From Clostridia bacterium (GTDB lineage: Bacteria > Bacillota > Clostridia > TANB77 > CAG-465): a DNA stretch of 64,000 bases. Of the stretch, positions 3,493-21,106 are shown piece by piece. The translations under genes and the position numbers were made by a program. Each line of letters opens with the position of its first letter. Position 1 is the stretch's first letter. A model generated the notes under the pieces. That model did no database searches and was not told the origin of the DNA. It saw only the letters and a program-made list of their open reading frames with translations. The DNA is taken from contig JAZRUV010000008.1 in the NCBI GenBank assembly GCA_045652705.1, positions 24,620 to 88,619 of the forward strand, written 5' to 3'.

Positions 3493-3522
3493 GAAACGAC
3501 CTCAAATTAATGAGGTCGTTTT
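3493..3522. terminator. Bidirectional terminator shared by valS and the convergent 190-aa gene
   Basis: acgacctca (3496-3504) pairs with tgaggtcgt (3511-3519). Flanked by an A-run and a T-run. The stop codon of the minus-strand gene lies in the loop/stem. Confidence 0.75.
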
Positions 3523-4079
3523 GTGGGCCATTCAACAGAATGGTTCCGGTTGATGATAGTCAAATCTCTACTATATGCATCACACACAAGAATGTAGTTG
3601 AAGATGTGGTAATGAGCCAAACAGTACTTTGTAATCTCTTCTGTGTAGAATTTATGGTTTTCTAGAGCTTCGTCATTACGGGCGATTCTAAACTCGACGT
3701 TGTAGCAGGGGGTGTAGTGCACAAATATGGTTTCGCCAAGCCGCTTTCCGAAGTTTTTAGCATATATATTGCATAGAGTTTTGGCAACTTTTTTTAAGAA
3801 TTTGTTATTCTTAAAAGCTGGAGGAATTTCTGCAAAGAGTAGGGGGATGCTATCAACGGTCATTCTTTCATTATCGTTGGTGATCCACCACGCTGTCCGA
3901 ATGTTATTTGTGTTGATAAAATGAATGCCGTAAGTAACAGCCTGTTCATAGTCTTTCTTAGGGACGTATAATGTGTCGTATCCAAGATAATTGTCGCGCT
4001 CTACCTTGAATTGGTTTGCCAGGAACCGTTCGACTTTTTTGCAATCATCCCGGTTAATGAACATAAAACAAAGTTTCAT
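3507..4079 (-). CDS. Hypothetical protein (190 aa), GC-richer orphan
   Basis: Long ORF with AAAGGAG RBS, its own TTGACA-17-TATAAT promoter and a terminator. I recognise no family motif. Confidence 0.6.
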   Translation of the reverse strand: MKLCFMFINRDDCKKVERFLANQFKVERDNYLGYDTLYVPKKDYEQAVTYGIHFINTNNIRTAWWITNDNERMTVDSIPLLFAEIPPAFKNNKFLKKVAKTLCNIYAKNFGKRLGETIFVHYTPCYNVEFRIARNDEALENHKFYTEEITKYCLAHYHIFNYILVCDAYSRDLTIINRNHSVEWPTKRPH

Positions 4080-4130: not shown

Positions 4131-4159
4131 ATTATACCATAAAATTAAATTTATGTCAA
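4131..4159 (-). promoter_or_regulatory. Sigma-A promoter for the 190-aa gene
   Basis: On the minus strand: TTGACA (4154-4159), 17 nt, TATAAT (4131-4136) with a TGg extended -10. Confidence 0.55.
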
Positions 4160-4682: not shown

Positions 4683-5552
4683 CTATATTCCCGGCATTCC
4701 TTCTCTATACTGACCTCTAGTTTGTACACCACCAATACCTTTTAAACCTTCACGAGTATTTGAAATTATACTAGCTAAAGGTGCAAACTTATCTACTGGA
4801 GTGTATGCAACTGTTTGCGCTACTATTATAGGGTCAAGCATATCTATTAAAACTCGTTTAGGGGCACTTGCAAAATTAGCTCCTGCACTTATAATAGCCT
4901 CATAATATGACTGACAAGCACCAGCAAATATTACAAGGTTGTCTAAAGAATGTTCGTATCGTCTAGCTTCTAGTACGCTTTCTATAAAATACCTAGAGTT
5001 TTTGTAATTATCTATATTATATATATCACTTTTTTTTCGGATAAATGCATCGTGGCCAGTAAGAACTAATATATTTGGCCTAATTCTCGTTAGAAGACTA
5101 TAAATATGCTTAGGCTGTTCTTGTTCTTTAATGTTATATACATGAGCTACGATTCCCATTTTCTTATACATATCCTTACACTTTAATGCATATTCTGGGT
5201 CGCCATCAATATGTAATACTACTCCGGGTTTTTTCAAAATTTCATCTTTAGAATACATATAAGAAGGATTATCTCTACTCGTATAATAACTATTTCTAAT
5301 ATTAAATCTATTTGTAACTCCCGAATATGAACGAGAGAGTCTTGTTCTAGAGTTTTTTTCTATATCACTAAGCATACGTTTAGCTTCATTATCCGTTATA
5401 AGTCTAAGATCATATATAGGGGCGTCGGCAAGTATTCTGACAGTAATTCCAACAAGGTCTGCCATATCACCATTTAATCGTTGTATTTTAAATAAAACAT
5501 CATAGTTATATGATTTTCTTGCTACAATATCTCCAATTTTAAAATTCGGCAT
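4683..5552 (-). CDS. yabG: Sporulation-specific protease YabG (peptidase U57)
   Basis: MPNFKIGDIVARKSYNYDVLFKIQRL...LADAPIYDLRL matches the YabG N-terminus and the length is typical. I place the start at the ATG at 5552 (AGAGGTGA RBS), not the track start at 5603. Confidence 0.8.
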   Translation of the reverse strand: MPNFKIGDIVARKSYNYDVLFKIQRLNGDMADLVGITVRILADAPIYDLRLITDNEAKRMLSDIEKNSRTRLSRSYSGVTNRFNIRNSYYTSRDNPSYMYSKDEILKKPGVVLHIDGDPEYALKCKDMYKKMGIVAHVYNIKEQEQPKHIYSLLTRIRPNILVLTGHDAFIRKKSDIYNIDNYKNSRYFIESVLEARRYEHSLDNLVIFAGACQSYYEAIISAGANFASAPKRVLIDMLDPIIVAQTVAYTPVDKFAPLASIISNTREGLKGIGGVQTRGQYREGMPGI

Positions 5553-5611
5553 AAAAATCACCTCTAAGGTATTGTATGCTAAATTTTTAAATTTGCTATA
5601 CAAACAAAATG

Positions 5612-5648: not shown

Positions 5649-6071
5649 TTACTTATTCAGTTTTGTGCCACACTTGTGACAGAAATCATTTTCCTTAGGC
5701 TGGGGGGTGCCGCACTTGTGACAGAAGCAGTTTGCTGTAGGAACTTGTTCCTCTGCTTCTGGCTGCAGATCAATATCCGGTTCCTCTTGGGGAGCAGTAA
5801 TCTCTTCATACTGTTCTTCCAAAGCAGCAAGCTTAGCTGCCGCCGCGGCGATATCTGCCGTGATCTCCGGCTTGGGGCGTACGCCTGCCAGTTCTGCGTT
5901 GCCGTGATAAGTCAAGCGACCGAGTTCAGCAAACAGATCATTGACTGCAAGCTTCTGAGCCTGGATATCCTGACTCAGCTGAAACCGTTCACAACCATTT
6001 TCCACTGCTGTCTGAGCCTTAGAGAAAAGACTTTCAGCCTTTTTGCCCAAATCCTCAAAAAATTTACCCAT
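5649..6071 (-). CDS. Zinc-ribbon domain protein (helical N-terminus, acidic linker, C-terminal double CxxC)
   Basis: C-terminus CFCHKCGTPQPKENDFCHKCGTKLNK has two CxxC knuckles. Very GC-rich relative to the backbone: my hand count for the 60-nt line starting at 5821 is 38/60 G+C. GGAGG RBS. Confidence 0.7.
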   Translation of the reverse strand: MGKFFEDLGKKAESLFSKAQTAVENGCERFQLSQDIQAQKLAVNDLFAELGRLTYHGNAELAGVRPKPEITADIAAAAAKLAALEEQYEEITAPQEEPDIDLQPEAEEQVPTANCFCHKCGTPQPKENDFCHKCGTKLNK

Positions 6072-6121: not shown

Positions 6122-6150
6122 ATTATATCACAAAACCCTTGATGAATCAA
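6122..6150 (-). promoter_or_regulatory. Putative promoter for the zinc-ribbon gene
   Basis: Minus strand TTGATT (6145-6150), 17 nt, TATAAT (6122-6127), preceded by TGTGA (TRTGn extended -10). The -35 overlaps the stop codon of the 1542-aa gene. Confidence 0.45.
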
Positions 6151-9100
6151 GACTTGATGTACATATACGCCTTGTCTTTGCTGCAGATGACGAACCTATT
6201 TGCTTTACGTTCAATTAAACAGCCTTGGGCTGCAAACTGAGATGTAAACTCTTTCTTAGTACCATCTATTACGTTATAGAAGTAAATAGTATCGCCAATC
6301 ATATAGTACAGCGTATTCTTGTAGAAGCAACTAGTGTTAGAAATCTCTTCTTTCAAGTTGAATACTGAATGTGAACCATCACTTGAAATCAAAACACCTT
6401 TTGTTTGATGACAGCCAGAAAGGAGTACTAAATAGTTACCAGACTCACTATCATAAAACAGACGTGATTGCATATTTTCACCTAAGCCTATGGTATCAAC
6501 TGAGGTCAACTGTTCCAAGTTACAATAAATGTGAACAAAGAATCTATCCTTTACCAAGAAGATAAACTTACGCTCATCTGTTACTAAGAAATCGAAAGGT
6601 GACAGAGTCGATGAGTTAACAACAATTCCGTCAGATTCCTGTTGTGACCTGCTACCGATTTGTTTTACGTGCACATTATTATCCGAAGAAGAAATGTAGT
6701 ATAGATTATTATTTGATGCATATACAACATCTTCTTTTGAAAGAGCACTATAGATATTGAATTTACCAGTAGTATCATTTAAAACAACGGAGTTATTAGG
6801 CGTGGTGAGAATGATGTAGTTGCCTGTTATTTTGCAAGAAATTGTACCAGAGGAAAATCTCAACAATTTGCGTTCGCACCATAAGAGGTAGCCAGAAGTA
6901 TCAATATAAGTGTGATAACTTAGGGCAAAACGACAAGGAGATAAACGCTTAACTTCTGTAAATTTCATTGCGTTGCTAGGGTTAGGGGTATCCAGTGAGG
7001 TTTTGAATTGTTCAAGGATAGCTCGCATACTTTCACGCTTTTTGCCTTCAAAAGTACTCTTAAAAAACTGAACAAGTTGTCTTGGCATGAAGTCCCAACC
7101 AATACTAATGTTAGGAACTTTAATACCATGATTTCCTAGTACAGATTTTCTGAGTTTCATTCTTGTTATTTCATCAGAGGGCACAAATTTAGAGCTAGAA
7201 ATGCCTCTAAACGGGTGCGAATAGGTGAAATAATAGAATGCTTGAATGGCAAGAGAATACCAATCATCAGCCTTTGTGATGTTTTTGTTTTCAGCTGATG
7301 GCGGGTATATATACATGTCTGTAAATACGAAATTCTTGACATTATCAAAACTCATACCGTCCATATCGATAAAGTAGACAGTCTTACCTTTTATTAAGAT
7401 ATTACCACCATTGAGGTCACCGATATATCCACCAATAGAATGGAGAAATTCGATGCCTATGCATACTTTAATGAGAATATCTACGATGTCAGCTCTAGTA
7501 TAACCTTTGCTTGCAACAAAATCCTTATCTTTAAGACAAGAAATTTTGAAAGACCCATCAATATCCTGTTGGACAAATCCTTTGAGTTTTATACTAGTTC
7601 CATTTGACTCATACTGTACCTCGTCAATGGTAACAAACTTAATATCAGAATGCTCATCGTTAAACGACTTAAACTGAGCTCTTTTTTGAAGTGCCTTTCC
7701 AAGTATTTTAGACTTGAATACTAAATCAACACCGGGTTTAAATAACTTTACAATCTTTCCGCCCTTATAGGGGTAGAGTGTCGCTTCTCCTCCTTCAAAA
7801 GCTGGCTTGTCTTTTTGGAACTGTTCGAAATGACTTGCTGGAAAAACAATAATGTCATCAACACTAATGCCGTCAGCAAGACACAAAGGACAGAGCGTAT
7901 TTTTGCTTGAAAATGGAATGTTGTGTACATTACAAAAAGCAGAAATGCACTCTTCCAAGATGGAGGTAGTGAACTTCAAATTTTCGATGTCTTGAATAAG
8001 ATTATATACCTCAGAACCTTTTACAGTACTGGTAGTATTTAGCATCGAATCAGACATAATGTAACCCACTAAGAATTCACCAAACGCCAATAATGTTTTG
8101 TGCATTGCATCTTTATCTTTAGCTAAAATAGCTTCACAATTCATAAAGGGGAGTTTGAAAATGATAAGTTCACCCTTATAATCTTTGTGCATACAAATAG
8201 AACTAAAGAAATCCTTATCATCAGTGATGCATGAACCGTTCAAGATGAGCGGAAGCAACTTCTTGTACATAACAAGTATGACTTGAAGTCGTTGCCTAGA
8301 TTCAAATAAGGATATTGGCAAAATGTTTTCAAAGTTAAATCTTGCCTTCTCAAAGTACACTACGCCAACAACTTTGTTGCCTTTAAGCGCTAACGAATCG
8401 GGCTGAAAGAAGAAGTGGTTAAACAAACCATGTTCAATACCAATTTTACACTGTTTAATAATCCTAGGATTCAGTGTTAAACCAAAGTGGTTACCAATAA
8501 GTGAATTACGGTAATTTGTTTCATGAAAATGCCACTCATCGTCACCGTAAATCTGGCGTGACGAGAATTGGTTAGTAACACAAAAAATCTTTCTACATTC
8601 AGGGCAAAGAGAACCTTCAATGTAGTACAGATTATGCTCTTTGCAAAGCAAAACGTTATTTGCTGTACTCCTATGACCATTATCGTAAAGTTCGCTATAC
8701 GAAAAAACTTCAAATGGCATATTTGTATCGCGATGGAAGTTTAACGCATTAAACAGATTTTTAAAGTGAGTCTCAAGATTAATTCCTGCGTTATATTGAG
8801 AATGCTTTAGCCAGTTGTTATTAAGGAAAACATTGTAATCCGGATCTACTAACATTTGGCATATATTGCTTTCATCAATTATCCAACCGTGATTTTGTTG
8901 GATAGATAACAAAGAAGAGAGCAACTTATAAAAAACTGCAGTGTCAACTTTACCATCTTGGATGAGCTTACCTATAGTGGTAAGATTTAACTTGTTCCAA
9001 ACAACGCCAACAATTTGGTAGCTATTTGCAACACATAAATCTCTACTTACAATCACTTTGGAAGGATGCAAGTAAAAGTCTTCTGTGTTGGCAAATATTT

Positions 9101-10775
9101 TTGCAAGAGTATCATCTGTAAGCTCTAGACCAATATCACTGATATACTGCAAACATTCAGAGGAGTTAATATAGTCATTTTCAAGATGCAAAGATTTCTT
9201 GGAAATGATTTTTTGCACTCTGTCATCTGACTGAACATTTGGGAAAAATGTGATTAAGTCAGGAACAATCTGTTTAAGATTGTGTAAAAAACGTATATTG
9301 TGAAGGTTGTCATAGCTCAACACATTACCCCAGTTATCTGTGTTTTCATCTAAAAGCGTACCGCTTTCAAGATAGCTAATAACATTTTTAGCAAAATTAG
9401 GAGGCAAAATCTTCATAAAACTATAAGTGAAAATGTTATCTACTTTTACTTTTCGAGATTTTGCGTACTTTTGTATAATGCTTAAAATAATCAGCTTGTA
9501 GTCTAGAACTGTATCCTTGTTCTCAAAATCCAATTGGTGGATATAAAGAGGATCAAGATAAAGTGTGGTATCAATGTTATAAAAACACTTTAAGACGGGT
9601 GCGCTAGGCTTAAAGGAAAAATCCCAGTGCCTTTTAGAAAGAGCCTGAATTGTTGATGTAATAGCTTCACATGTGTCAGTAGCAACCTTATCTTCCAAAG
9701 AGAAGGCATTAGGCACACTAAAAAAGAGATAGACGGCATCCTTTGTAATGTTTGGAACAACACACCACCTGTATATAAAACCAGAAGTGGCACAGTTAGA
9801 TATATTATCTAAATATACATCTGCATGCTGCACGTCTTTTATTTTAATTACAATGTGTTTGTCGCTATCCCAACTCTTCTTTACTGTGTAGGTTGTCATC
9901 TCAGCATAATTACTCTCAAGTTTTAAATTACCCTCAAGAATCTTTTCGTCAAAGACAAAATCAAAGGGCTCAACATTTTGTAAAACTGAGAGAGAACTAT
10001 TCGTATCATGTTCTCTAAAGAACTCGTCATAGCTACTAAACGAATTATTGTCATAAATATACCGAAGCATATTTATACAAATATTACGTGGCCAATTAGA
10101 GCCGTTAAAAAACGCATCTAAAGAACGCAGATACATACCGGGTAATTGAGTGTGCAGTTCGAAAGAAAGCTTATCACAAGACAAAAACAGATCTATGATT
10201 CTTTTCAATTCATGTGGCGAGAATAAATATTCATCACCAATAATAGAAGTGAAAAAGGAAGTCAAGAAAGATGTCTTATGTGTGCTCCATAAAAATGTGC
10301 GGAACAAGTTATAATAATCTACATGAACAGTATGCTCACTTGTTGAAAATAGAGCTATAAGTTCAAGCAAATTATCATAAGCTTTACTCAAGAAGTCTCT
10401 GCTTCTATCTAGCCTACAGTTATAATACACAAAAGAAACTTCGCGCTTCTTCTTGTTAATGAAAAATTTCATATCGCTAAAACACTCGATTTGAGCATAA
10501 GCAGTATTCAGTTTCTCATTAAAATCCTCACTTGTGACAGCAACATAAAGTATGTTAGCAAGTGAAGAGTCGTTTATAGTGACTATTGTGCCATTACAAG
10601 CTGTAGCAGAAGCTAGATTACCGGGACGGTTAGAATACGAATACTCATCCTGCAGTTTTTGCCTGATTACATTCGCAACTCTCGTGTTTATTTTTGTTAG
10701 CTGTTTGCTTTTTGCCAAATATCTCTCTAAATTGAATGATTTAGGAGCTAACGAGGCTGAAAAGTTTTCAAACAT
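6147..10775 (-). CDS. Giant (1542 aa) multidomain protein with an atypical Ser/Thr protein-kinase-like core
   Basis: Kinase-like segment at about aa 990-1212 (nt about 7140-7810). It has a G-loop/Lys region EGGEATLYPYKGGKIVKLFK, a catalytic loop LHSIGGYIGDLNGGNILI (Asp and Asn kept), a DFG-equivalent YFIDMDG, and WYSLAIQAFYYFTYSHPF. Two Cys knuckle pairs: CKEHNLYYIEGSLCPECRK and CNVHNIPFSSKNTLCPLCLADG. About 700 aa at the N-terminus are unassigned. The C-terminal ~270 aa are beta-strand-rich and repetitive. Confidence 0.75.
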   Translation of the reverse strand: MFENFSASLAPKSFNLERYLAKSKQLTKINTRVANVIRQKLQDEYSYSNRPGNLASATACNGTIVTINDSSLANILYVAVTSEDFNEKLNTAYAQIECFSDMKFFINKKKREVSFVYYNCRLDRSRDFLSKAYDNLLELIALFSTSEHTVHVDYYNLFRTFLWSTHKTSFLTSFFTSIIGDEYLFSPHELKRIIDLFLSCDKLSFELHTQLPGMYLRSLDAFFNGSNWPRNICINMLRYIYDNNSFSSYDEFFREHDTNSSLSVLQNVEPFDFVFDEKILEGNLKLESNYAEMTTYTVKKSWDSDKHIVIKIKDVQHADVYLDNISNCATSGFIYRWCVVPNITKDAVYLFFSVPNAFSLEDKVATDTCEAITSTIQALSKRHWDFSFKPSAPVLKCFYNIDTTLYLDPLYIHQLDFENKDTVLDYKLIILSIIQKYAKSRKVKVDNIFTYSFMKILPPNFAKNVISYLESGTLLDENTDNWGNVLSYDNLHNIRFLHNLKQIVPDLITFFPNVQSDDRVQKIISKKSLHLENDYINSSECLQYISDIGLELTDDTLAKIFANTEDFYLHPSKVIVSRDLCVANSYQIVGVVWNKLNLTTIGKLIQDGKVDTAVFYKLLSSLLSIQQNHGWIIDESNICQMLVDPDYNVFLNNNWLKHSQYNAGINLETHFKNLFNALNFHRDTNMPFEVFSYSELYDNGHRSTANNVLLCKEHNLYYIEGSLCPECRKIFCVTNQFSSRQIYGDDEWHFHETNYRNSLIGNHFGLTLNPRIIKQCKIGIEHGLFNHFFFQPDSLALKGNKVVGVVYFEKARFNFENILPISLFESRQRLQVILVMYKKLLPLILNGSCITDDKDFFSSICMHKDYKGELIIFKLPFMNCEAILAKDKDAMHKTLLAFGEFLVGYIMSDSMLNTTSTVKGSEVYNLIQDIENLKFTTSILEECISAFCNVHNIPFSSKNTLCPLCLADGISVDDIIVFPASHFEQFQKDKPAFEGGEATLYPYKGGKIVKLFKPGVDLVFKSKILGKALQKRAQFKSFNDEHSDIKFVTIDEVQYESNGTSIKLKGFVQQDIDGSFKISCLKDKDFVASKGYTRADIVDILIKVCIGIEFLHSIGGYIGDLNGGNILIKGKTVYFIDMDGMSFDNVKNFVFTDMYIYPPSAENKNITKADDWYSLAIQAFYYFTYSHPFRGISSSKFVPSDEITRMKLRKSVLGNHGIKVPNISIGWDFMPRQLVQFFKSTFEGKKRESMRAILEQFKTSLDTPNPSNAMKFTEVKRLSPCRFALSYHTYIDTSGYLLWCERKLLRFSSGTISCKITGNYIILTTPNNSVVLNDTTGKFNIYSALSKEDVVYASNNNLYYISSSDNNVHVKQIGSRSQQESDGIVVNSSTLSPFDFLVTDERKFIFLVKDRFFVHIYCNLEQLTSVDTIGLGENMQSRLFYDSESGNYLVLLSGCHQTKGVLISSDGSHSVFNLKEEISNTSCFYKNTLYYMIGDTIYFYNVIDGTKKEFTSQFAAQGCLIERKANRFVICSKDKAYMYIKS

Positions 10776-10831: not shown

Positions 10832-11539
10832 TTAGATATTAAAGAAACTATCTGCTACAACTTTTTTAGCTTCAGGTGAAGCTTCAGCAGATGCATCAGT
10901 CGCAGCCTTAGAGAAGAACTTAGACTTAAGAGAAAAAGCGCTTCGAGACTGCTCAACACAGCTTTGAGAGAGTTCTGTTCCGAGACACGAAACTAGCTCT
11001 TTTGCAGAGGTGATATCTCTAATACAAGAGAATCCCAAAAGTTCACCATCTTTTGCCGCAATAGCCTCACCAAATGCAACAAATACGGTAGTTGCATCAA
11101 GACTGTTAAGTTTAGCAACCATATCCTTGGCAGCGTCGATTTCACTTTTGAAGTTGCAATTATCAAGGCCGTCGGAGAACACCAAAAATGTGATTCTGGG
11201 TCTGATGTTAAGACGACTTTCGATTTCTTGGAAGTATGCAATAGTTTCTTCGCCCACTTCAACAACTGCTCTGTATAACCTAGTTCCACCATCAGCATAA
11301 TAGTTTGTAGAAAAATCCTTAACCGGTCCAAAACTTGTCATTTTGACATGTTCGGCAAACATAGCTTTTGCGATTGCTACGGAACCCTTTTCTTCAAAAC
11401 GAGAAAAGTCTTCATAGAAAGCTTTGTTTGCCTCAACAATTGCTTTAACGTAGTCTTTCATAGAGCCAGAACAGTCATAAATCATAACGAAGATATTGAC
11501 AACGTCAGAAGAAAACGAATAAAGGTGATTATCCATCAT
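10832..11539 (-). CDS. von Willebrand factor type A (TerY-like) protein
   Basis: Intact MIDAS elements: IFVMIYDCSGSM (DxSxS), YYADGGTRLY (GT) and LVFSDGLDN (DG). 235 aa, the size of TerY-like vWA proteins. Confidence 0.8.
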   Translation of the reverse strand: MMDNHLYSFSSDVVNIFVMIYDCSGSMKDYVKAIVEANKAFYEDFSRFEEKGSVAIAKAMFAEHVKMTSFGPVKDFSTNYYADGGTRLYRAVVEVGEETIAYFQEIESRLNIRPRITFLVFSDGLDNCNFKSEIDAAKDMVAKLNSLDATTVFVAFGEAIAAKDGELLGFSCIRDITSAKELVSCLGTELSQSCVEQSRSAFSLKSKFFSKAATDASAEASPEAKKVVADSFFNI

Positions 11540-11557: not shown

Positions 11558-13042
11558 TTAAATAGTAATGTGATTTGCAAACATAGTTTCAAGGTTGGAA
11601 AAACCATTGAAATACGAATGGTGAAGATAGATTGCGTCGTCGATAACTACAAAGTCTAAATACAGGTTCATGAATTCTGTCGTAACAACTGCGTTATCCA
11701 CTTGCCCTGCTCTAAAAAGCAAAACATACTTTTTCTTCTGACCGCCCTTATAGTTTAAAAGCTTAGTTTTGTACTTCGTAATATATTCTTCAGAATACTC
11801 GGGATATTTATTATCCAAGCTTGTAAAATTATCCGAAATACAGGAAAACACAGTGCTTCTTGCCACCTTTACAACGCTATCGTAAAGGTCAAAAATTTTG
11901 CATAGGAAGTAAAATTCTTCCCACGTGATATTAATGGTAAACCCACTAATAAGGGTTTGCAAAATATTAGCAATGTTGTTATGGATAAGCTTTAACACAG
12001 CTATGGCCATTTCGTTTACATTAGTGGTACTAATAGTTTTGGGTGTACCAAAAATGTTAGGCAGAAAAACAACAAAGTCCTGACCGACAGTTTTTGCTGC
12101 TTCTTCAAGAGTGTTTTCTAACTTCAAGAGACCGTCAAAATAGGCAGAATCCAAATTTGATTGCAAAAATTCTCTAGTACTTGTTTTTAATTTATCACAA
12201 GATTGGAGTAGAAAGTCGTAACATTCATAATTTTGCAATTTAGACATTACGAAATTCTCCACCTGTTCTAAATCTTGTACTAAGAATTTAAACAGCAACT
12301 TGTCGTAATCTGCTTCTACGAAGAAGGAGCTAAGTTTTGAAGTGCCGTTCTTGTAATCACTTAAATTGCTACAAAAGTTGTATCTTAAGGCTGTTTTAAA
12401 GAGCATGTAGTCACAGTAAATGACATAGTTTAAAATCTCTTCGCGACGTCTAGAATCTTTTGTAAAGAATGTTAAAGGCTGTACTTCGGCAATTAGCTCT
12501 CTTGCTTTTTCAGATGCATTCAAAAATTGTTTGTGTACCTTTTGCCGATCTATATGACAATTCACAATTGTATTGTAGAATTCATTAAGACGGGAACATA
12601 GGGTAACAAATTTTTTCTTGTGCATCTCAAAGTATACAACAAAATCCACGAAGTGATTAATTTTACCTTCTAGAGAAAGTACAGTAATATAATAGTTATC
12701 CCGTTCGGGGTCGATTGCGAAAGTAATATTACCTTCTAGTCCCTTAAGATAGCTTTCTAACTGCTCTTCATATTCTCTTCTTTGAGTAGTAATGAGTTGC
12801 AAAAACTGCTTATACTCATTAGGAAAAGTCGTTGCGAAAGATTTAATGTATTCTTCAAGATAATTTAGTTTTTCAAGAACAACATTCTCTACTTGAAATT
12901 TCGCGATACCTTCACCAAGCTTTTGAATTTCTTCCACAATTTTCTCTGGGTCGTCTAAGGAGTCGTCTTTTACTATTTGTATAGGCTGAACGACGGGCCT
13001 TTCGGAACCAAAGAGATTCTTTATCCAACTTATAAAAGCCAT
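11558..13042 (-). CDS. Hypothetical, predominantly helical protein (494 aa)
   Basis: Tightly packed in the operon, with an 11-nt gap to the upstream gene and an 18-nt gap to the downstream gene. I recognise no motif. Confidence 0.6.
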   Translation of the reverse strand: MAFISWIKNLFGSERPVVQPIQIVKDDSLDDPEKIVEEIQKLGEGIAKFQVENVVLEKLNYLEEYIKSFATTFPNEYKQFLQLITTQRREYEEQLESYLKGLEGNITFAIDPERDNYYITVLSLEGKINHFVDFVVYFEMHKKKFVTLCSRLNEFYNTIVNCHIDRQKVHKQFLNASEKARELIAEVQPLTFFTKDSRRREEILNYVIYCDYMLFKTALRYNFCSNLSDYKNGTSKLSSFFVEADYDKLLFKFLVQDLEQVENFVMSKLQNYECYDFLLQSCDKLKTSTREFLQSNLDSAYFDGLLKLENTLEEAAKTVGQDFVVFLPNIFGTPKTISTTNVNEMAIAVLKLIHNNIANILQTLISGFTINITWEEFYFLCKIFDLYDSVVKVARSTVFSCISDNFTSLDNKYPEYSEEYITKYKTKLLNYKGGQKKKYVLLFRAGQVDNAVVTTEFMNLYLDFVVIDDAIYLHHSYFNGFSNLETMFANHITI

Positions 13043-13053
13043 ACTAAGCCTCC

Positions 13054-14085
13054 TTACTCATAAAAGTCTGAAATAATATGCCCTATGACGGGGAAGCCCA
13101 AAGCAGATACTCTTATAGCATCAGAATCTTTTATACAAAAATATTTAAAAGCTTTAAGCTTAGACATATTTTGCAGTTTTGAAATGCAAGAAGAGATTAT
13201 CTTGATTGAATCTTCGCTTTGGGTACACGCGCCTGTACCAATACAAACAACCGAGCAATTTCCGAGTTTATACTTTACTTTGCCAAAGGAAAAAGTATCT
13301 GCCGCGAAAACGTTTAAGTTGTTTACAAGATAAAAAAGAGCGCTTGCAAGATTTGGTGCTTCGTTTTCCTCGGAAGCTGTAAGAAGAGAGGAAATAATAT
13401 TTTTCTCTTTTACAGATGTATAATCCATGGGGATAAACGGTGTTTGCCCATTTCCAACTTTAACGAATAGGAAAATAGCGTCTTTTTTATTTTCCACTGC
13501 CTGTGAAATTATATTAGTGATATTTTCTTTTTGTTTCAGAGTTTCAGTGGAGTTTTCGACAAGAAAGGCAAAAACGTCTTTTTGTTGAAATTTAGGCACA
13601 GCAGGTTTCCAATAGTAAGGCTTTGTGCCAAAAGTGGGGGCAGAAGGTCTACCCTTATAACCAAATCCGTCATCATATCTAGCCCCATTTGGTAAACTTC
13701 CTTTAACAGGGGTAAGAGGTGGGACATCCGGTCCATTCGGAACTTTAGGTCTCGGCGGTATATTGGGTTTGCCACTTACCGGATGATTGGCCTTAGAAAC
13801 ATCCTCGTCGTTATCTTGGGTCCAAGAAGAATAAGCTATATCTTCAGCGTCTACAGGAGGTTCACTAAAGCTTTTAGGAACATTATCCTGTGATGCAGGA
13901 GGTGGCGTATTTTCTTTTGCATCAGGAATAACAAGAGGTGGCATACCCCCGTTTACAGATTTCAACATATCATCAGCTGTCTTGCCCGATGCTTTCAGCT
14001 TTGAATAGTAATCGTAGTCTGAATCAGACGGACGAATATCATAAGGTGATGGCTTTTTACCAAACAACATATCAAAAAATGACAT
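13054..14085 (-). CDS. Pro-rich protein with a C-terminal degenerate vWA-like domain (343 aa)
   Basis: The N-terminal ~165 aa are low-complexity and Pro-rich (PPLVIPDAKENTPPPASQ...PNIPPRPKVPNGPDVPPLTP). The C-terminal half begins DVFAFLVENSTE, where a vWA DxSxS would sit, then alternates beta/alpha-like segments. The vWA assignment is pattern-based only. Confidence 0.5.
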   Translation of the reverse strand: MSFFDMLFGKKPSPYDIRPSDSDYDYYSKLKASGKTADDMLKSVNGGMPPLVIPDAKENTPPPASQDNVPKSFSEPPVDAEDIAYSSWTQDNDEDVSKANHPVSGKPNIPPRPKVPNGPDVPPLTPVKGSLPNGARYDDGFGYKGRPSAPTFGTKPYYWKPAVPKFQQKDVFAFLVENSTETLKQKENITNIISQAVENKKDAIFLFVKVGNGQTPFIPMDYTSVKEKNIISSLLTASEENEAPNLASALFYLVNNLNVFAADTFSFGKVKYKLGNCSVVCIGTGACTQSEDSIKIISSCISKLQNMSKLKAFKYFCIKDSDAIRVSALGFPVIGHIISDFYE

Positions 14086-14096
14086 ATATAATCTCC

Positions 14097-14762
14097 TTAA
14101 AATAGAATTGTGACATCATCATAGAACACGGACCTGTTAGAATTAATAACACCTTCCGGCTTATAGTTTGTTTTTGTACCTAGGAAAAATGCATCAAAAG
14201 GTTGATTAAGCTGCTTATCCACAATTGGTGCGAGACCATCGGAAGCAATGCCAACCTTTATGAAATCTTGTTTGCTAAATTCGAAAGTTTTAAACTTGAG
14301 CGGCCTAGGGTAATTATCTGTTTCAAGTTTATTGTATGAATAGTAGGGGGGAGCTTTTCCATAAAAAAGCCTAATATAACTTAACAAATTATGTTTGTTA
14401 ACTGTTATAATATAGCCATCCCCAATAAATTTTACAACAAACTTATCTTCTAACTCGAAGCATGCGATAATAGTGAAAAGCATGTTGTTTATTATAAATG
14501 TATCAAAATCCTTTCCGGATTTAGTGCCTGCAAAATTACATACTTTAGCAAATGCTTTCTCAACGTTTTGCTCGAATTTGTCAATGTCTAGTCTTGTGTC
14601 AAGTCTCGAAAAAGCTTGTGCAAAAAGCCGAGTACCTACTTCAGAGAACAGACCGTCGCTACAGCCATCTGTAATAATCTTGAGATTGCCTTCTTCAAAA
14701 AAGAAGTCCTGATTATTTAGGCCATCTAAATAATGGCCGTTCCCTTGTCTACATATTTGCAT
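14097..14762 (-). CDS. PP2C-like protein phosphatase
   Basis: GNGHYLDGLNNQDFFF...KIITDGCSDG...FIGDGYII...GIASDGL. This is the G.H...NQD / DG.S.G / DG pattern of the bacterial PP2C-like family found in TerY-P triads. Confidence 0.7.
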   Translation of the reverse strand: MQICRQGNGHYLDGLNNQDFFFEEGNLKIITDGCSDGLFSEVGTRLFAQAFSRLDTRLDIDKFEQNVEKAFAKVCNFAGTKSGKDFDTFIINNMLFTIIACFELEDKFVVKFIGDGYIITVNKHNLLSYIRLFYGKAPPYYSYNKLETDNYPRPLKFKTFEFSKQDFIKVGIASDGLAPIVDKQLNQPFDAFFLGTKTNYKPEGVINSNRSVFYDDVTILF

Positions 14763-14918: not shown

Positions 14919-16133
14919 CTAGAATGTCATATCTGTGCTCGAAGAAGTCTTAGTCTGAAGGGCCTCGGGCTTGGCCTCGGGAAGGGCACCTACGATAGGT
15001 GCAAGTTCCTGGATCAAAGACTGAAGTTTGCTAAATTCTTCCGAAATATGGCCGGACTGTTTGTCGTCAAACTCATCCATAGCGTTACAACACTGGACTA
15101 CAGTTTTTGCAGCTGCAAGGCCAATTTCGATAGAATAAACGCTGTTAAGCAACAACTTTTCAGCTTCTTGCTCTGTGGGCAGGAGGCCAGCGCTTACCTT
15201 TGTAATGAGTTCGTCGTTGAGAGAAGTAATGGAACGTTGACCTTCCAAAATCTCACGGTTTTGCGCAGTCAAAACAGAAGCCATAATTTGTTGGGCGGCT
15301 GTAGTCATACTGTTTGTCGCTTGGAAGTTGATAGCCAGTTGAAGCTTTTTGTTAGTTTCACGCTGGATTCTCAACTGTCCGAGGTGCAAAAGATATGATT
15401 CGCGCGACTTTTCCAAGTTGAGAAGGGACAGTTGGAAGGCAGAAAAACCTTCTTTGGAAGCTTCGTAAAGCTCGCTGTTGTCCATCAACCCACCTTGTTC
15501 GTATGCTTCTCTTTTTTGCTCCAGCTCGCCTTCGATTCGCTTTTCTGCAATTCGACCAGCAACCAGATACCTTTCGATAAGAGAACCGTTGGTAACAACA
15601 TCCCTAATTGCATCAGAGATAATGTTATAATTGTCCTGCAAAATCTCTTCCCAGTTTTTACAATTTTCTTTAAGCTTCAAAAGAATCTTGTAGCAACTGA
15701 GAGCAATTACTTTGGCGTCATCGTTACGCTTATCTTTGAGAGACGTAAAGATGTTCATCAAAAAGCGCTGGAACGGGTTTGGTTCTTGGATTGCGACACT
15801 GAGTTCGTTTTGCTTTTTGCTTGCCTGCTCGGAGAGCTTAGCGATTTCATCTGCTACGGTCCGGTCTACAGTGGTACCCTCAATTGTCTTCATAAATTCC
15901 ATAGCGAAATCGAAAGAACGCTCCAACGGGATACTACCAAAGGATTTAATTTTGTCTAACTGAAGGGGATCTACCTGGTCAGCCACACGCATAATTTCTG
16001 CTTGGGTAGCAGCATCATAACGTTGGATGTCTTCAGCACAAATAGGTGCGATTGCGTTTTTCTGAGCAGGCTCAGGGGTAGCTACCATACTGGTTCCTTG
16101 CTGGATAACGGGTGTTACATTTGTATTGTCCAT
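14919..16133 (-). CDS. telA: TelA/YaaN-family (toxic anion resistance) protein
   Basis: 404-aa helical protein. Segments RVADQVDPLQLDKIKSFGS, YLVAGRIAEKRIEGEL and LGQLRIQRETNKKLQLAINFQ align in order with my recollection of B. subtilis YaaN/TelA. Hand counts on two sampled 60-nt lines are high: 26/60 G+C for the line starting at 15001 and 35/60 for the line starting at 14941. Confidence 0.75.
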   Translation of the reverse strand: MDNTNVTPVIQQGTSMVATPEPAQKNAIAPICAEDIQRYDAATQAEIMRVADQVDPLQLDKIKSFGSIPLERSFDFAMEFMKTIEGTTVDRTVADEIAKLSEQASKKQNELSVAIQEPNPFQRFLMNIFTSLKDKRNDDAKVIALSCYKILLKLKENCKNWEEILQDNYNIISDAIRDVVTNGSLIERYLVAGRIAEKRIEGELEQKREAYEQGGLMDNSELYEASKEGFSAFQLSLLNLEKSRESYLLHLGQLRIQRETNKKLQLAINFQATNSMTTAAQQIMASVLTAQNREILEGQRSITSLNDELITKVSAGLLPTEQEAEKLLLNSVYSIEIGLAAAKTVVQCCNAMDEFDDKQSGHISEEFSKLQSLIQELAPIVGALPEAKPEALQTKTSSSTDMTF

Positions 16134-16298: not shown

Positions 16299-16553
16299 TT
16301 ATTTTGCTAATAATTTTGCAAGATGAGCTTTTTTTCTGTCAGCAGTGTTTCTTTTTAAAACACCTTTAGACCAAGCTTTATCTACTTCAGAAACTGCTTT
16401 TTTGTGAAGATCTTCTAGATTTTTTTCACCGTTAGCTACTGCAGCTTCGAAAGCTTTAACAGCATCTCTGTATGCTTTTCTAACTTTTTTATTTTCAAGA
16501 CGATTAGCTTCGTTAACTAATACTCTTTTTTTAGCTGATTTAATATTTGGCAT
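16299..16553 (-). CDS. rpsT: 30S ribosomal protein S20
   Basis: MPNIKSAKKRVLVNEANRLENKKVRKAYR is the canonical S20 N-terminus. 84 aa. Confidence 0.95.
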   Translation of the reverse strand: MPNIKSAKKRVLVNEANRLENKKVRKAYRDAVKAFEAAVANGEKNLEDLHKKAVSEVDKAWSKGVLKRNTADRKKAHLAKLLAK

Positions 16554-17006: not shown

Positions 17007-17708
17007 ATGTCTTTGAATGGTAAAATTATTGTTATTGAAGGAACAGATGGTAGCGGTAAACAAACCCAAGCACAAATTTTGAGAAAAAGACTTGAGCAGG
17101 AAGGGTATACTGTTTACTCTGCATCTTTTCCTAATTATCCTAGCGATTCTTCTGCAGCGGTGAGGATGTATCTTAATGGGCAGATAAAAAAGGAACCTAA
17201 AGATGTAAGTGCTAAAGCAGCATCAACTTTTTATGCTGTAGATAGATATATTACATATAAGAGAGAAATCGAACCGATTTATAAGCAAGGTGAAAGTGTT
17301 ATTGTATTTGACCGTTGGGTTGAGTCTAACATTATTCGCCAGGGTGCAAAGTTTATTGCAAATAAAACATGTGAACCCGAAAGAAGTGATAGACTAGAGG
17401 ATTTTATTTATTGGCTTAAAAATTTGGAGTATGGAGATTTCGAAGTTCCCAAACCTTACATGACAATCTATTTGAATGTTCCTATAGATTATACAATGGC
17501 TCTTAGAAAGAACAGAGCAAATAAAATTACTGGCGGTGAAAAACAAGATATACATGAAGCAAGCGAAAAACATCTTATTGATGCGAGTATGACAGGACTG
17601 CTTGCGGCAGATATTTTGAATTGGGAGGTTATTGAATGTGTTAAAGATGGTCAAATGAGAACTATCGACGATATCGCAAAAGAAGTTTGGCAAAGAGTAA
17701 ACAAGTAA
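17007..17708 (+). CDS. tmk: Thymidylate (dTMP) kinase family protein
   Basis: P-loop IVIEGTDGSGKQTQ and FPNYPSDSSAAVRMYLNG, the Thymidylate_kin pattern. 233 aa. GGAGGG RBS. Confidence 0.8.
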   Translation: MSLNGKIIVIEGTDGSGKQTQAQILRKRLEQEGYTVYSASFPNYPSDSSAAVRMYLNGQIKKEPKDVSAKAASTFYAVDRYITYKREIEPIYKQGESVIVFDRWVESNIIRQGAKFIANKTCEPERSDRLEDFIYWLKNLEYGDFEVPKPYMTIYLNVPIDYTMALRKNRANKITGGEKQDIHEASEKHLIDASMTGLLAADILNWEVIECVKDGQMRTIDDIAKEVWQRVNK

Positions 17709-17732
17709 TAAGTAATAAGTAATAAGTAAATA
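17704..17732. repeat. Heptanucleotide tandem repeat (AGTAATA)x3 plus one imperfect copy
   Basis: agtaata agtaata agtaata agtaaata. It overlaps the tmk stop codon and places stop codons in several frames. Confidence 0.9.
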
Positions 17733-17761
17733 ATCTAAAATAACAATAGGAGGATTTTGTT

Positions 17762-18970
17762 ATGGAAATTAGACTTGTTAGCACAAACCCTGGAATCGAT
17801 TTGTACATTGCTCGGGATACTACGCCGAGTAAAGAAGAAAAAATCAAAGAAATTGTTCGTGAACTTTCTATGTTTGCTGGCAAGGTCGGAGGAGAATGTT
17901 ATTCTTCTGACAGTTTAGAACACATTATGAATGAAAGTGAGAAGGAAACCCGGGGAAGAATGAACTTCTGCCTTAATAAGAAACATCACAGTATTTTTGA
18001 ACACCCTAAGCTTACTTTTGAGTTTGTAGGAGTTCCCAAGTTTATTTTCATGATGCTGAACAATCAGTATGTATATACTACTTCGGAAAGAAGTGCGAGA
18101 TATACTAATTTCAGCGAACTTATTGAAACTCGAGAAGAGTCTCAACTTTATGCTAAATGGACGGATAAAATTAGTCGTGCAATCAAGGAGTTCTACGGAG
18201 ATAAGTTCACAGACAAGGAAGTTCAGAAGCTGGCTCAAGAAAATGCTCGTTATATGATTTCTGTATTCGTTCCCAGTTCTATGGTGCACACCATCTCTCT
18301 TAAGGATTTGAACTATACACTATATTTGCTTGAAGAATTTTTGAAGAGCGACTGGGAAAGAAAAACAGCAGTAACTGAACTCTTTATGAGTATTTTGCGT
18401 CCGAAGTTGGAAGAGTTTCTAAAGGAAATGGCGCCTTACAGACTTCCGGGTCTTGAACCTAAGTTTGTAAGAGAGATTGCGATTTTCAAAACACCGCTTA
18501 GCCGAGAAAATCAGGCTGATGCAACGTATCGCTTGAACTATGATATGTCTTTTGCAGCATTTGCACAGGCTCAGCGTCATCGTAGCATTAGATATTCTAT
18601 TGAGCTTAAGAGGCCTACTCCATATATTCCGCCTATTATCAGCGCAGCTGGGCTTGAGACAGAGTGGGTAGCAGATATGATTAGTATTTGCGATAGATTC
18701 CCTCAAGGTCTTATGGTAAATGTTACTGAGACTGGTGAAATTGAGGATTTTGTAGGCAAGTGCTATGAGAGATGTTGTGGCAGAGCGCAACTGGAAATTC
18801 AGGAGAATACGTGTAATTCTTTGGCTTATCTTAGAACTTCTGAAAATGCTGAGGTTGTCAAATATTTAAAAGAGACAACCGGTGATTCTTTTGCAAGATG
18901 TGGTTTTCCTGGCTATCACTGTGTGGAAGTTTGTAAATTTGGCAAGAACCAGCGTGAAAGAAAAATTTAA
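17762..18970 (+). CDS. Divergent ThyX-like (flavin-dependent thymidylate synthase family) protein, 402 aa
   Basis: KKHHSIFEHPKLTFEFVGVPKFIFMMLNNQYVYTTSERSARY aligns to the ThyX core H.(S/T).FEH...TF......F.......RHR..S..E.S.RY, but the RHR is replaced by NNQ. A separate QRHRSIRYS lies about 190 aa later. A C-terminal GRAQLEIQ resembles the ThyX AQ.EIR element. About 1.7 times normal ThyX length. Confidence 0.5.
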   Translation: MEIRLVSTNPGIDLYIARDTTPSKEEKIKEIVRELSMFAGKVGGECYSSDSLEHIMNESEKETRGRMNFCLNKKHHSIFEHPKLTFEFVGVPKFIFMMLNNQYVYTTSERSARYTNFSELIETREESQLYAKWTDKISRAIKEFYGDKFTDKEVQKLAQENARYMISVFVPSSMVHTISLKDLNYTLYLLEEFLKSDWERKTAVTELFMSILRPKLEEFLKEMAPYRLPGLEPKFVREIAIFKTPLSRENQADATYRLNYDMSFAAFAQAQRHRSIRYSIELKRPTPYIPPIISAAGLETEWVADMISICDRFPQGLMVNVTETGEIEDFVGKCYERCCGRAQLEIQENTCNSLAYLRTSENAEVVKYLKETTGDSFARCGFPGYHCVEVCKFGKNQRERKI

Positions 18971-18977
18971 TATAAAA

Positions 18978-19008
18978 TTAGAGGGTGCCTTATTAGGCAT
19001 CCTCTAAT
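18978..19008 (+). terminator. Terminator after the ThyX-like gene
   Basis: ttagagggtgcct / aggcatcctctaa stem (one G.U pair), followed by tttg. Confidence 0.55.
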
Positions 19009-19031
19009 TTGTCAGTTCTGAAAAGAAAAAA

Positions 19032-19060
19032 TTGCAAATGTTTAATATAGATGATATAAT
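19032..19060 (+). promoter_or_regulatory. Promoter of the HipA-like kinase gene
   Basis: TTGCAA (19032-19037), 17 nt, TATAAT (19055-19060), preceded by ATGA. Confidence 0.5.
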
Positions 19061-19077
19061 GTGAAAGAGGTGAAATT

Positions 19078-20139
19078 ATGATTAATTTGACTTTTGATCA
19101 AATAACTAAACATAAGGATGAAGATGGATTTGTGCATTTAGATGAACTCTTTGTAAATTCGGATTCTGAACGTGAAGTAAGAGGAAATATAAATAGAGAT
19201 AAAAGATGGTTTAAGATAGATGATGGAACTGCTATGTTTAAATCTAATACTGAGCAAGCGTTATACGCACACTATTCAGAGTTAATATGTACAGAACTTG
19301 CAAAACAAGCAGGACTGGATGCTGCGGAATATGATATAGCAAAATGTAATGGTCAAACGGGAATAATAACCAAAAATGCTTGTAAACCCGGCGAAGAAAT
19401 GTTAACTATAAATGAATTAATAGGAGACGGGCCAACATACGAAGATTACCCAGATAATACAGATATATATTTTGTTTTCGATTCATTAGAAGAGAAGCTA
19501 CTAGCTGATGGATATAATGAGGAAATGATAGATAGTTGTATATTGCAGCTAAGGAAACAACTTCTTTTTGATTTATATATAATGGAAACAGATAGACATA
19601 CTGAAAATATATCTTTTATTATAGGAAGAGATGCCGAAACGGGAAGACCACATATACGATTGGCTCCTATGTATGATACGGAATCGGCACTGTTGCTTTA
19701 CGACGATGCTGAACACATGAAGAAAGTGTGGACAAGCAGGGCGGTAACACATAGTATAACTAATTTACAGGAACCTAAAATATGTGTAATACCTGAAGGT
19801 GATAGTGACCCGGAACAAAGCGGAATGGATAGAGGCTTGTTTGAGTTTCTTCAAGCTCAAGTTGGCACAGCATACGATACTCCTAGTGAAGAAATATGGA
19901 AATCTACATTAGACTTTTTAGTTGAAGATGAGAGAACGTATGAATTTTCTGAGAATGTTTTAAATGGGTTAGATATATCTAAGGCTATTGAAAATGTAGA
20001 AAGAAATAAAAAGTGTACAATACCTGAAGAAGTAAAGCAAATGGCAAGAGCTTGTTTTGGCGTAAGACAAACAGAAATTGCGTTTGAATTAGGTTTGGAT
20101 TTAAAAGAACAAAACATAGCAGAAAAAGAGTTGACATAA
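19078..20139 (+). CDS. HipA-C-terminal-like Ser/Thr kinase (HipT-like), 353 aa
   Basis: LYIMETDRHTENISFII...RLAPMYDTESAL matches the HipA catalytic motif (D.H..N.SF...LAP.YD). Upstream, WFKIDDGTAMFKSN...YSELICTELAKQAGL resembles the ATP-binding lobe. It lacks the HipA N-terminal subdomain. Confidence 0.65.
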   Translation: MINLTFDQITKHKDEDGFVHLDELFVNSDSEREVRGNINRDKRWFKIDDGTAMFKSNTEQALYAHYSELICTELAKQAGLDAAEYDIAKCNGQTGIITKNACKPGEEMLTINELIGDGPTYEDYPDNTDIYFVFDSLEEKLLADGYNEEMIDSCILQLRKQLLFDLYIMETDRHTENISFIIGRDAETGRPHIRLAPMYDTESALLLYDDAEHMKKVWTSRAVTHSITNLQEPKICVIPEGDSDPEQSGMDRGLFEFLQAQVGTAYDTPSEEIWKSTLDFLVEDERTYEFSENVLNGLDISKAIENVERNKKCTIPEEVKQMARACFGVRQTEIAFELGLDLKEQNIAEKELT

Positions 20140-20897: not shown

Positions 20898-21106
20898 ATC
20901 TGTGTTGATTTGCGTTGAAGTGGTAGATGGCTATGCATAGACATAGGGAACTTCCATGGAGCATGTCTGATTTGAAATCGGGCGGCAAGTATTGAATTTG
21001 TATTTGCCAAATGTTAATTTGGCTTTATATTATGTCACAAATTTGAAACACACGGGGTAGTGTAAAACTTGCAAGTCCTTGAAATTATAGTAAAGGAGTG
21101 AAAAAT

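Follow-up and report, generated by a model that had tools for sequence, protein, structure and literature searches.

The gene considered here occupies 6147..10775 on the minus strand of a 64,000-nucleotide (nt) stretch of DNA from a Clostridia bacterium (GenBank assembly GCA_045652705.1, contig JAZRUV010000008.1, positions 24,620 to 88,619). This whole stretch is called the window below, and positions are counted from its first letter. The gene is an open reading frame (ORF) of 1542 amino acids (aa) with an ATG start, and it encodes a giant multidomain kinase. With its neighbours on the same strand it gives the order TelA, PP2C-type phosphatase, 343-aa protein, 494-aa protein, 235-aa von Willebrand factor A (vWA) protein, kinase and 140-aa zinc-ribbon protein. 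In the favoured interpretation, the kinase chain would consist of an N-terminal half (aa 1-705), a CHCC knuckle, a pseudokinase (aa 731-945), a second CHCC knuckle, a catalytic domain (aa 985-1262), and a propeller (aa 1278-1542). All parts of the protein are located below by minus-strand coordinates.

The probable catalytic domain and the propeller

A Hanks-type protein kinase domain is assigned to 6990..7823 (aa 985-1262) from Pfam, profile searches of the PDB, invariant residues, and AlphaFold2 (AF2) models. When the whole protein is compared with Pfam, the match to Pkinase covers aa 1089-1204 alone, at 30.2 bits versus a gathering score of 31.7; the isolated domain reaches 32.0 bits, and the orthologues L021 and L022 reach 38 bits. 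A profile made from aa 701-1542 aligns the C-lobe in the PDB to RSK, PKC-theta, and PknB (E down to 8e-5). In this alignment IGDLNGGNILI stands opposite YRDLKPENILL of RSK, and D1137-M-D1139-G stands opposite DFG with an insertion of one residue, D1137 being the DFG Asp. Further along, F-T1152-D-M-Y1155-I-Y-P-P is opposite G-T-x-x-Y-M-A-P-E, and D1171-W-Y-S is opposite the D-W-W-S of alpha-F. The AF2 model has a pLDDT (score of the predicted local distance difference test) of 80-94 for aa 985-1150 and aa 1226-1262, with the activation segment at low confidence, and Foldseek matches the modelled kinase to LRRK2, BRAF, Lck, and Src. By predicted fold and by core residues, aa 985-1262 is a Hanks-type kinase.

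Conservation was counted on an alignment of 37 sequences of the family, whose overall identity goes down to ~19% (about 19-30%). In GGKIVKLFK (aa 1005-1013) the single invariant residue is K1010. In GDLNGGNIL (aa 1119-1127) D1120 and N1125 are invariant, together with L1121, N1122, and G1123, and in IDMDG (aa 1136-1140) so are D1137, D1139, and G1140. The residue between the two Asp is M, F, I, or L, and the most divergent sequences (P0043, P0044, and L018-L024) have DFDG. The remaining fully conserved positions are G995, G996, E997, and K1021 on the N-terminal side, and M1141, T1152, P1158, D1171-S1174, H1187, P1188, G1191, E1243, and R1247 on the C-terminal side.

Several observations weigh against an active enzyme. 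No acidic residue is conserved in aa 1018-1041, the predicted alpha-C, where K1021 and N1039 are the only conserved positions. The HRD motif reads IGD, the catalytic-loop Lys is an Asn, and APE has become YPP (aa 1157-1159), with loss of the Glu, the alpha-F D1171-W-Y-S and R1247 being invariant. Because the alpha-C Glu, the HRD His and Arg, the loop Lys, and the APE Glu are gone, activity is plausible but unproven. One may then ask if the entire protein is a catalytically dead scaffold, in which aa 985-1262 would bind nucleotide or partners without phosphotransfer and the PP2C of the operon would serve another kinase. The missing residues speak for such a scaffold, as do the whole-protein Pfam score just below gathering and the poorly modelled activation segment. 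However, K1010, D1120/N1125, D1137, and the GGE loop are strictly invariant over a deep divergence, as expected of an enzyme, and the operon has its own PP2C, which points to turnover of phosphate. A dead scaffold is thus unlikely, and the domain is probably competent for catalysis, a rating based on phosphotransfer residues that are frozen while their surroundings drift.

The C-terminus, at 6150..6944 (aa 1278-1542), is predicted to fold as a compact beta-propeller. The AF2 model of aa 701-1542, built with 15 sequences, has a mean pLDDT of 82.7, and aa 1281-1540 form 27 strands in it, arranged as seven groups (pLDDT 84-92). The best Foldseek match of this model is the kinase plus WD40 part of LRRK2 (E 7.5e-9, ~690 columns). 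Further matches for the propeller are designed propellers of 6 and 8 blades, among them Pizza6 (template modelling (TM) score 0.57), as well as Cj1041c (0.5) and the BT4673 sensor propellers. In the model, the C-terminus is therefore a beta-propeller of six or seven blades. With the exception of the buried alpha-E helix, no segment of the kinase or of its six neighbours reaches the hydrophobicity of a transmembrane segment, and hence the propeller would be cytoplasmic.

An earlier note on this DNA, made from the letters alone, had described an atypical but probably active kinase core within about 1300 aa of unassigned sequence, with zinc knuckles ahead of it and a propeller-like sensor behind. 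Much of this description holds. The three quoted motifs and both knuckles lie where it put them, the phosphotransfer residues in the motifs are invariant, and the C-lobe does align to known kinases. Structure prediction, which it proposed as a check, returns a protein-kinase fold at the core, and the last 265 aa are all-beta in the model (pLDDT ~85-90). Since Pfam covers aa 1089-1204 alone, some 1300-1400 aa are indeed without assignment. Pfam searches on six separate segments (E up to 10) find nothing beyond the kinase core, and in six distant orthologues they find a single kinase domain each and no further domain. NCBIfam gives a match of 17.7 bits to the kinase region of LanKC and nothing else, the 4-Cys prefix model having no match to the kinase.

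The succession of a kinase domain and a C-terminal propeller in one cytoplasmic chain recalls LRRK2 and the ROCO proteins. The likeness to LRRK2 is architectural: sequence identity is ~10%, with no evidence of common descent, and no segment of the protein has a Pfam match to ROC GTPase, COR, LRR, ankyrin, or armadillo domains. Among bacteria, the giant kinase may be compared with PknD of M. tuberculosis, a sensor kinase carrying an NHL propeller. In contrast to PknD-type sensors, there is no transmembrane segment here, and the propeller would lie in the cytoplasm.

Zinc knuckles and probable kinase-like modules upstream

Two short Cys/His motifs precede the catalytic domain. Knuckle 1, at 8586..8654 (aa 708-730), reads C711-x2-H714-x9-C724-P-x-C727, with ligands at nt 8595-8645, and knuckle 2, at 7872..7940 (aa 946-968), reads C948-x2-H951-x10-C962-P-x-C965, with ligands at nt 7881-7934. 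All eight ligands are conserved in every one of the 37 sequences, the two motifs are aligned with each other by hhalign, and AF2 models knuckle 1 as a short beta hairpin. Their sequences suggest that both bind zinc. Each stands immediately N-terminal to a kinase-like domain. A vestigial third knuckle before aa 545 (S-P-E-C541, CPEC in P0003) was considered and rejected, as it occurs in the close clade only.

The region between the knuckles, at 7941..8585 (aa 731-945), is modelled by AF2 with a pLDDT of ~90. It begins with three strands and a helix, continues with two strands, a long helix, and a short hairpin, and ends with a long central helix and three further helices. In the model, this is the secondary-structure order of a small kinase. 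Foldseek aligns the model of aa 701-1542 over 648 columns to a JAK pseudokinase-kinase chain, and over 638 columns to a 545-residue EGFR kinase-domain duplication (EGFR-KDD). Such alignments would be hard to explain unless the query contains two consecutive kinase-like domains. The region has no conserved Lys/Asp/Asn triad, and the positions conserved in at least 90% of the sequences are P792, I844, and D909 only, the last at the spacing expected for the structural Asp of alpha-F, a role it may well have. The structural model thus makes it quite probable that aa 731-945 is a pseudokinase.

Further upstream the modules become more degenerate. The segment at 8661..9335 (aa 481-705) has b4/b5-like strands at 571-593 and an aE-like helix at 612-628, followed by a loop and two short strands; it is poor in N-lobe elements, with a pLDDT of 60-75 that falls below 50 for aa 488-598. 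Within aa 577-710, the residues conserved at 90% or more are S577, Y586, and G590 only. The segment at 9336..9935 (aa 281-480) is better modelled (pLDDT 70-89), is the size of Bud32, and has the order b1-b2-b3-aC-b4-b5-aD-aE-b7-b8-aF; none of its catalytic positions is conserved. The first 280 residues (9936..10775) form a family-specific alpha/beta region with a pLDDT of ~70-88 over aa 13-180 that drops below 50 in aa 184-276, and they have no match in Pfam or in the PDB.

The relations between these segments were assessed by hhalign with the 37 sequences, against 24 reversed-template controls whose maximum score is 20.9. Two internal alignments exceed all the controls: aa 481-705 with aa 728-945 (score 30.2, P 5.6e-4, in register), and aa 281-480 with aa 481-705 (score 25.1, P 2.6e-3). 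They are co-linear and agree around a P-x-K-V/I strand, an h-x-G-h-h strand, the hinge, a long helix, and a loop-hairpin, in the region of b4-b5-hinge-aE. A weaker alignment of aa 62-117 with aa 307-351 (P 0.007) is marginally over the controls, and aa 1-280 is possibly a further degenerate kinase-like N-lobe. With 22 sequences the internal repeats are marginal, and with 10 close sequences no repeat is found beyond the two knuckles. On these results aa 481-705 is rather likely a decayed homologue of aa 731-945, and a kinase-like nature of aa 281-480 is a little better founded than that. The number of degenerate modules may be three or four instead of one, and that aa 1-705 holds one to three of them, as the favoured interpretation supposes, is fairly likely.

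The claim of repeated kinase-like modules has to face a number of adverse results. When the upstream modules are aligned to the active domain, P is 0.04-0.06, no better than the null, and these links become worse, not better, once hhalign is also given the AF2 secondary structure. For aa 1-800 AF2 gives a poor model, of mean pLDDT 57.6, with ordered blocks at aa 13-180, 280-480, and 600-690, and the Foldseek matches of this model do not locate the matching region. Even for aa 731-945, the likeness to kinases depends on a single AF2 model, together with Foldseek alignments that carry no query ranges. Hence, the upstream 960 residues could consist of unrelated family-specific alpha/beta domains, with artefactual Foldseek matches. 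This would fit with the TM-scores of 0.3-0.47 for aa 1-800, with a PDB profile search of aa 1-960 that gives no meaningful match, as Pfam gives none there, and with the lack of any catalytic remnant conserved family-wide; in fact, conservation stays below 90% at every position of aa 2-576 when the family is taken as a whole. A profile of aa 1-960, compared exhaustively with 1.84 billion representative proteins, gives 36 matches, all of them members of the same family or fragments thereof, and no outside relative that could name the N-terminal half. As far as HMMER sees, this half is therefore confined to the kinase family and always joined to the kinase. On the other hand, aa 731-945 is confidently modelled and is aligned jointly with the kinase domain to two-kinase targets. 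For aa 1-800, the PDB returns almost only protein kinases (CK2alpha, TkArkI, and PRPK, E ~1e-4), and BFVD, a second library, again almost only kinases. The internal alignments are, moreover, mutually consistent. That these domains are unrelated to kinases is accordingly quite improbable.

The proposal of decayed copies bears on the idea, put forward in the earlier note, of a pseudokinase-kinase tandem based on a second, degenerate catalytic loop. The motif in question, QNHGWIIDESNICQMLVDPDYNVFL, is present at aa 626-650, but its H629, W631, D634, and N637 are conserved in the close clade only, and no residue of the motif reaches 90% conservation in the family. The existence of a dead kinase-like domain is supported, but its strongest instance is the one between the knuckles, which had been missed. 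The segment that was chosen instead falls in the weakly modelled aa 481-705, which shows weak homology to aa 731-945 in the hhalign comparison.

If the interpretation with decayed copies holds, units made of a knuckle and a kinase-like domain would have arisen by internal duplication, with catalysis lost in all copies but the last, aa 985-1262 being the only domain that bears catalytic residues. A dead kinase-like domain directly before an active one is also the arrangement of JH2-JH1 in JAKs, of plant tandem kinase proteins, and of the EGFR kinase-domain duplication, a likeness in architecture only. The present family differs from these in being bacterial, in having a CHCC knuckle before each unit and perhaps more than one dead copy, in lacking FERM and SH2 domains, and in that the similarity between copies is almost erased. 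Bacterial Hanks kinases usually have one catalytic domain plus sensor repeats. In the literature searched, there is no bacterial description of stacked decayed kinase copies together with a live kinase and a propeller.

The operon and its likeness to TerY-P modules

Genes of the six-gene core, from TelA to the kinase, are kept together in every relative examined, including the clade at ~19% identity, and between the PP2C and kinase genes the intergenic gaps are 11-56 nt. The first gene of the module, at 14919..16133 on the minus strand (as are the genes that follow), codes for a TelA-family protein of 404 aa (Pfam TelA, 38.1 bits versus a gathering score of 30), and its position is kept in L002-L004, L021, L022, and L024. 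The PP2C-type phosphatase (14097..14762, 221 aa) matches PP2C_2 (PF13672) at 33.8 bits versus a gathering score of 24 and is kept in all loci examined. The 343-aa protein (13054..14085) has no Pfam match; its first ~160 residues are of low complexity, rich in Pro, Ser, and Asp, and its C-terminal half looks in sequence like a vWA fold with a degenerate metal ion-dependent adhesion site (MIDAS), ENSTE instead of DxSxS. Relatives have a protein of 248-294 aa in this slot. Next comes a conserved protein of 494 aa (11558..13042), an orphan partner of the kinase that has no match in Pfam, NCBIfam, PADLOC, or the PDB; in every locus its slot holds a protein of 494-511 aa. The 235-aa vWA protein (10832..11539) has an intact DxSxS MIDAS, DCSGSM. 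The 140-aa protein downstream of the kinase (5649..6071) is rich in Ala and Glu and ends in a double CxxC zinc ribbon (Zn_Ribbon_1, 27.1 bits versus a gathering score of 25). Its gene is found in the near clades and is absent from L022 and L024, where prfB stands in its place.

Upstream of TelA, at 16212-16184 on the minus strand, is a perfect promoter match (TTGACA-17-TATAAT with an extended TG), and a 15-bp hairpin terminator with a T-tract directly follows the TelA stop codon (14914-14882, minus strand). TelA may thus be transcribed apart from the genes PP2C to kinase, or the hairpin may attenuate read-through. The zinc-ribbon gene is followed by a strong 13-bp hairpin terminator at 5641-5612 on the minus strand. 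Only ~10 nt separate this terminator from the TTG at which the downstream ORF for the YabG peptidase (4683-5603) is listed to start.

The joint occurrence of vWA proteins, a PP2C, and the kinase had already been pointed out, and the operon adds TelA to it. TerY-P systems are a triad of a TerY-like vWA protein, a PP2C, and a Ser/Thr kinase (Anantharaman 2012 and Gao 2020, as summarised in PMC11090510), and they are thought to be phosphorylation-dependent signalling switches (PMC11090510). The operon resembles them by its candidate vWA protein with a MIDAS motif, its PP2C, and its Hanks-type kinase, by the predicted zinc-binding knuckles of the latter, and by its tie to TelA, a member of a tellurite-resistance family. 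In C. difficile, tellurite-resistance proteins are phosphoproteins that depend on a Ser/Thr kinase (PMC9674922). The vWA assignments themselves weigh somewhat on the other side, as the Pfam matches remain under the gathering scores (VWA_CoxE at E 0.0049 for the 235-aa protein, and PF00092 VWA at E 0.0019 for its L022 orthologue), and a PDB search with the 235-aa protein finds nothing.

The differences are also numerous. A TerY-P kinase is defined by a C-terminal fusion to a zinc ribbon or an OB fold (PMC11090510), whereas the present one, at ~1540 aa, ends in a beta-propeller, and the zinc ribbon is on a separate downstream protein. Its knuckles precede kinase-like domains, of which one to four would be dead. 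There are two extra conserved partners, the ~500-aa protein and the second vWA-like protein, and the setting is that of a core genome. For the seven operon proteins, PADLOC (E up to 0.01) has no TerY-P match, nothing for vWA, PP2C, or TelA, and weak generic matches for the kinase only (mad6, PD-T4-6, and MkoA). The mention of a TerY-P kinase in the earlier note is therefore apt for the module but not for the protein: both the C-terminal domain and the PADLOC search separate it from TerY-P kinases, and the system is best called TerY-P-like. Pathways of threat sensing that combine MoxR, vWA, and kinase/phosphatase proteins with propeller sensors have also been described (PMC13622651), from which the operon differs in having no MoxR ATPase or FHA protein.

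Taken as a whole, the protein seems to us somewhat more likely than otherwise to be a soluble cytoplasmic multidomain Hanks kinase of the Ser/Thr type, with decayed kinase copies, one live domain, and a propeller, that serves a switch module. It would be the kinase arm of a six-gene module made of TelA, PP2C, the vWA-like protein, the ~500-aa protein, the vWA protein, and the kinase, and the module would operate in the manner of TerY-P, as a phosphorylation switch. A signal or partner proteins might be bound by the propeller and the dead kinase modules, and this binding would release or position the single active domain. The latter would then phosphorylate itself and the vWA, TelA, or ~500-aa partners, until the PP2C resets the switch.

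A bolder version of this interpretation makes the protein a bacterial counterpart of the integrated-decoy or allosteric tandem kinases, in which three or four internally duplicated, knuckle-prefixed pseudokinases and the propeller act as baits or gates for one live kinase that controls a TelA/vWA response to membrane stress or an abortive infection. We regard it as speculative and rather improbable. If it were true, regulation by multiple pseudokinases would have arisen independently in bacteria. A chain with decayed kinase copies before a live one and a propeller at the end is built on the principle of JAKs, of LRRK2, and of plant tandem kinases. Should the live domain be regulated or baited by the dead modules, the family would offer a bacterial system of compact size in which to study how pseudokinases exert control. 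It would also link TelA and vWA proteins, whose roles in biochemical terms are still unclear, to a definite signalling enzyme. The reach of such findings is limited by the small size of the family and by its restriction to uncultured Clostridia, mostly of animal guts.

Distribution and genomic setting

A first search found 10 full-length relatives at 36-100% identity, and full-length relatives are 1537-1694 aa long. The 36 matches of the exhaustive search are cluster representatives at 50% clustering, and nearly all have 1540-1690 aa. A scan of GTDB with one genome per species gives 19 loci. All are in metagenome-assembled genomes that bear the label Clostridia, Clostridiaceae, or Clostridium, and those with a complete gene have ORFs of ~1500-1620 aa. 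Where a sample source is named, it is the gut of sheep, buffalo, human (Hadza), mouse, or rabbit. The family thus occurs in uncultured Clostridia only, most of them from the guts of animals. Both the 36 representatives and the 19 GTDB loci show the full-length architecture; the gene is real and no accident of assembly. In L005 (4050-8838 of a metagenome contig), gene calling splits the kinase into ORFs of 302 and 1273 aa; a frameshift or a sequencing error is a more probable cause than a shorter isoform.

Housekeeping genes flank the operon throughout. L002-L004 and L021 share sepF-divIVA, accompanied by a class I tRNA synthetase in the former and by ftsY in the latter; L022 and L024 have secA and prfB; in the window the flanking genes are divIVA, a class I tRNA synthetase, yabG, rpsT, and an S10 leader. 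The operon looks like a vertically inherited part of the core genome rather than a defence island. In L022, a ToxN gene (type III toxin-antitoxin/abortive infection) lies at 1138-1668, two genes upstream of TelA, and is the sole defence-type neighbour among the loci examined.

These surroundings matter for the possibility that the module is an anti-phage defence of the TerY-P type, in which phage proteins would be baited by the dead modules or the propeller and TelA would be the membrane effector. In its favour are the triad of vWA, PP2C, and Ser/Thr kinase, which defines TerY-P, and the phage protection conferred by TerY-P-like modules (PMC11090510, citing Gao 2020). So are the weak PADLOC matches of the kinase to defence kinases and the ToxN gene beside the operon in L022. 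However, none of the seven proteins has a TerY-P match in PADLOC, and the operon appears to be inherited vertically in one lineage, without a patchy distribution. Because the flanks are housekeeping genes, a role in defence is not indicated by the context. Defence is for these reasons a doubtful function, and a signalling switch of the core genome is the interpretation retained.

Some features of the window concern its organisation at large. Between 3500 and 16600 the GC skew is near zero, versus ~+0.2 elsewhere, and this is the only long minus-strand stretch (13 kb). As the operon is co-directional with sepF-divIVA and the synthetase in L002-L004, an inversion in the source clade is suggested. 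The minus strand has rpsT at 16299-16553, and the plus strand has a ribosomal leader of the S10-Clostridia family (Rfam RF03136, 40 bits) at 20907-20988. Given this leader, the sequence from ~21 kb onward, with its many small ORFs and strong purine skew, may be the S10 region. The family of the leader and the YabG gene point to the core of a Clostridia chromosome. Just past rpsT, at 17007-20139 on the plus strand, are a thymidylate-kinase-like ORF (233 aa), a ThyX-like ORF (402 aa), and a HipA_C-like kinase (353 aa); the ThyX-like ORF is unusually long, and the trio is odd beside a region of ribosomal proteins. Finally, a second perfect pair of -35 and -10 boxes with an extended TG is found at 4131-4159 on the minus strand, upstream of an ORF of 190 aa at 3507-4079.

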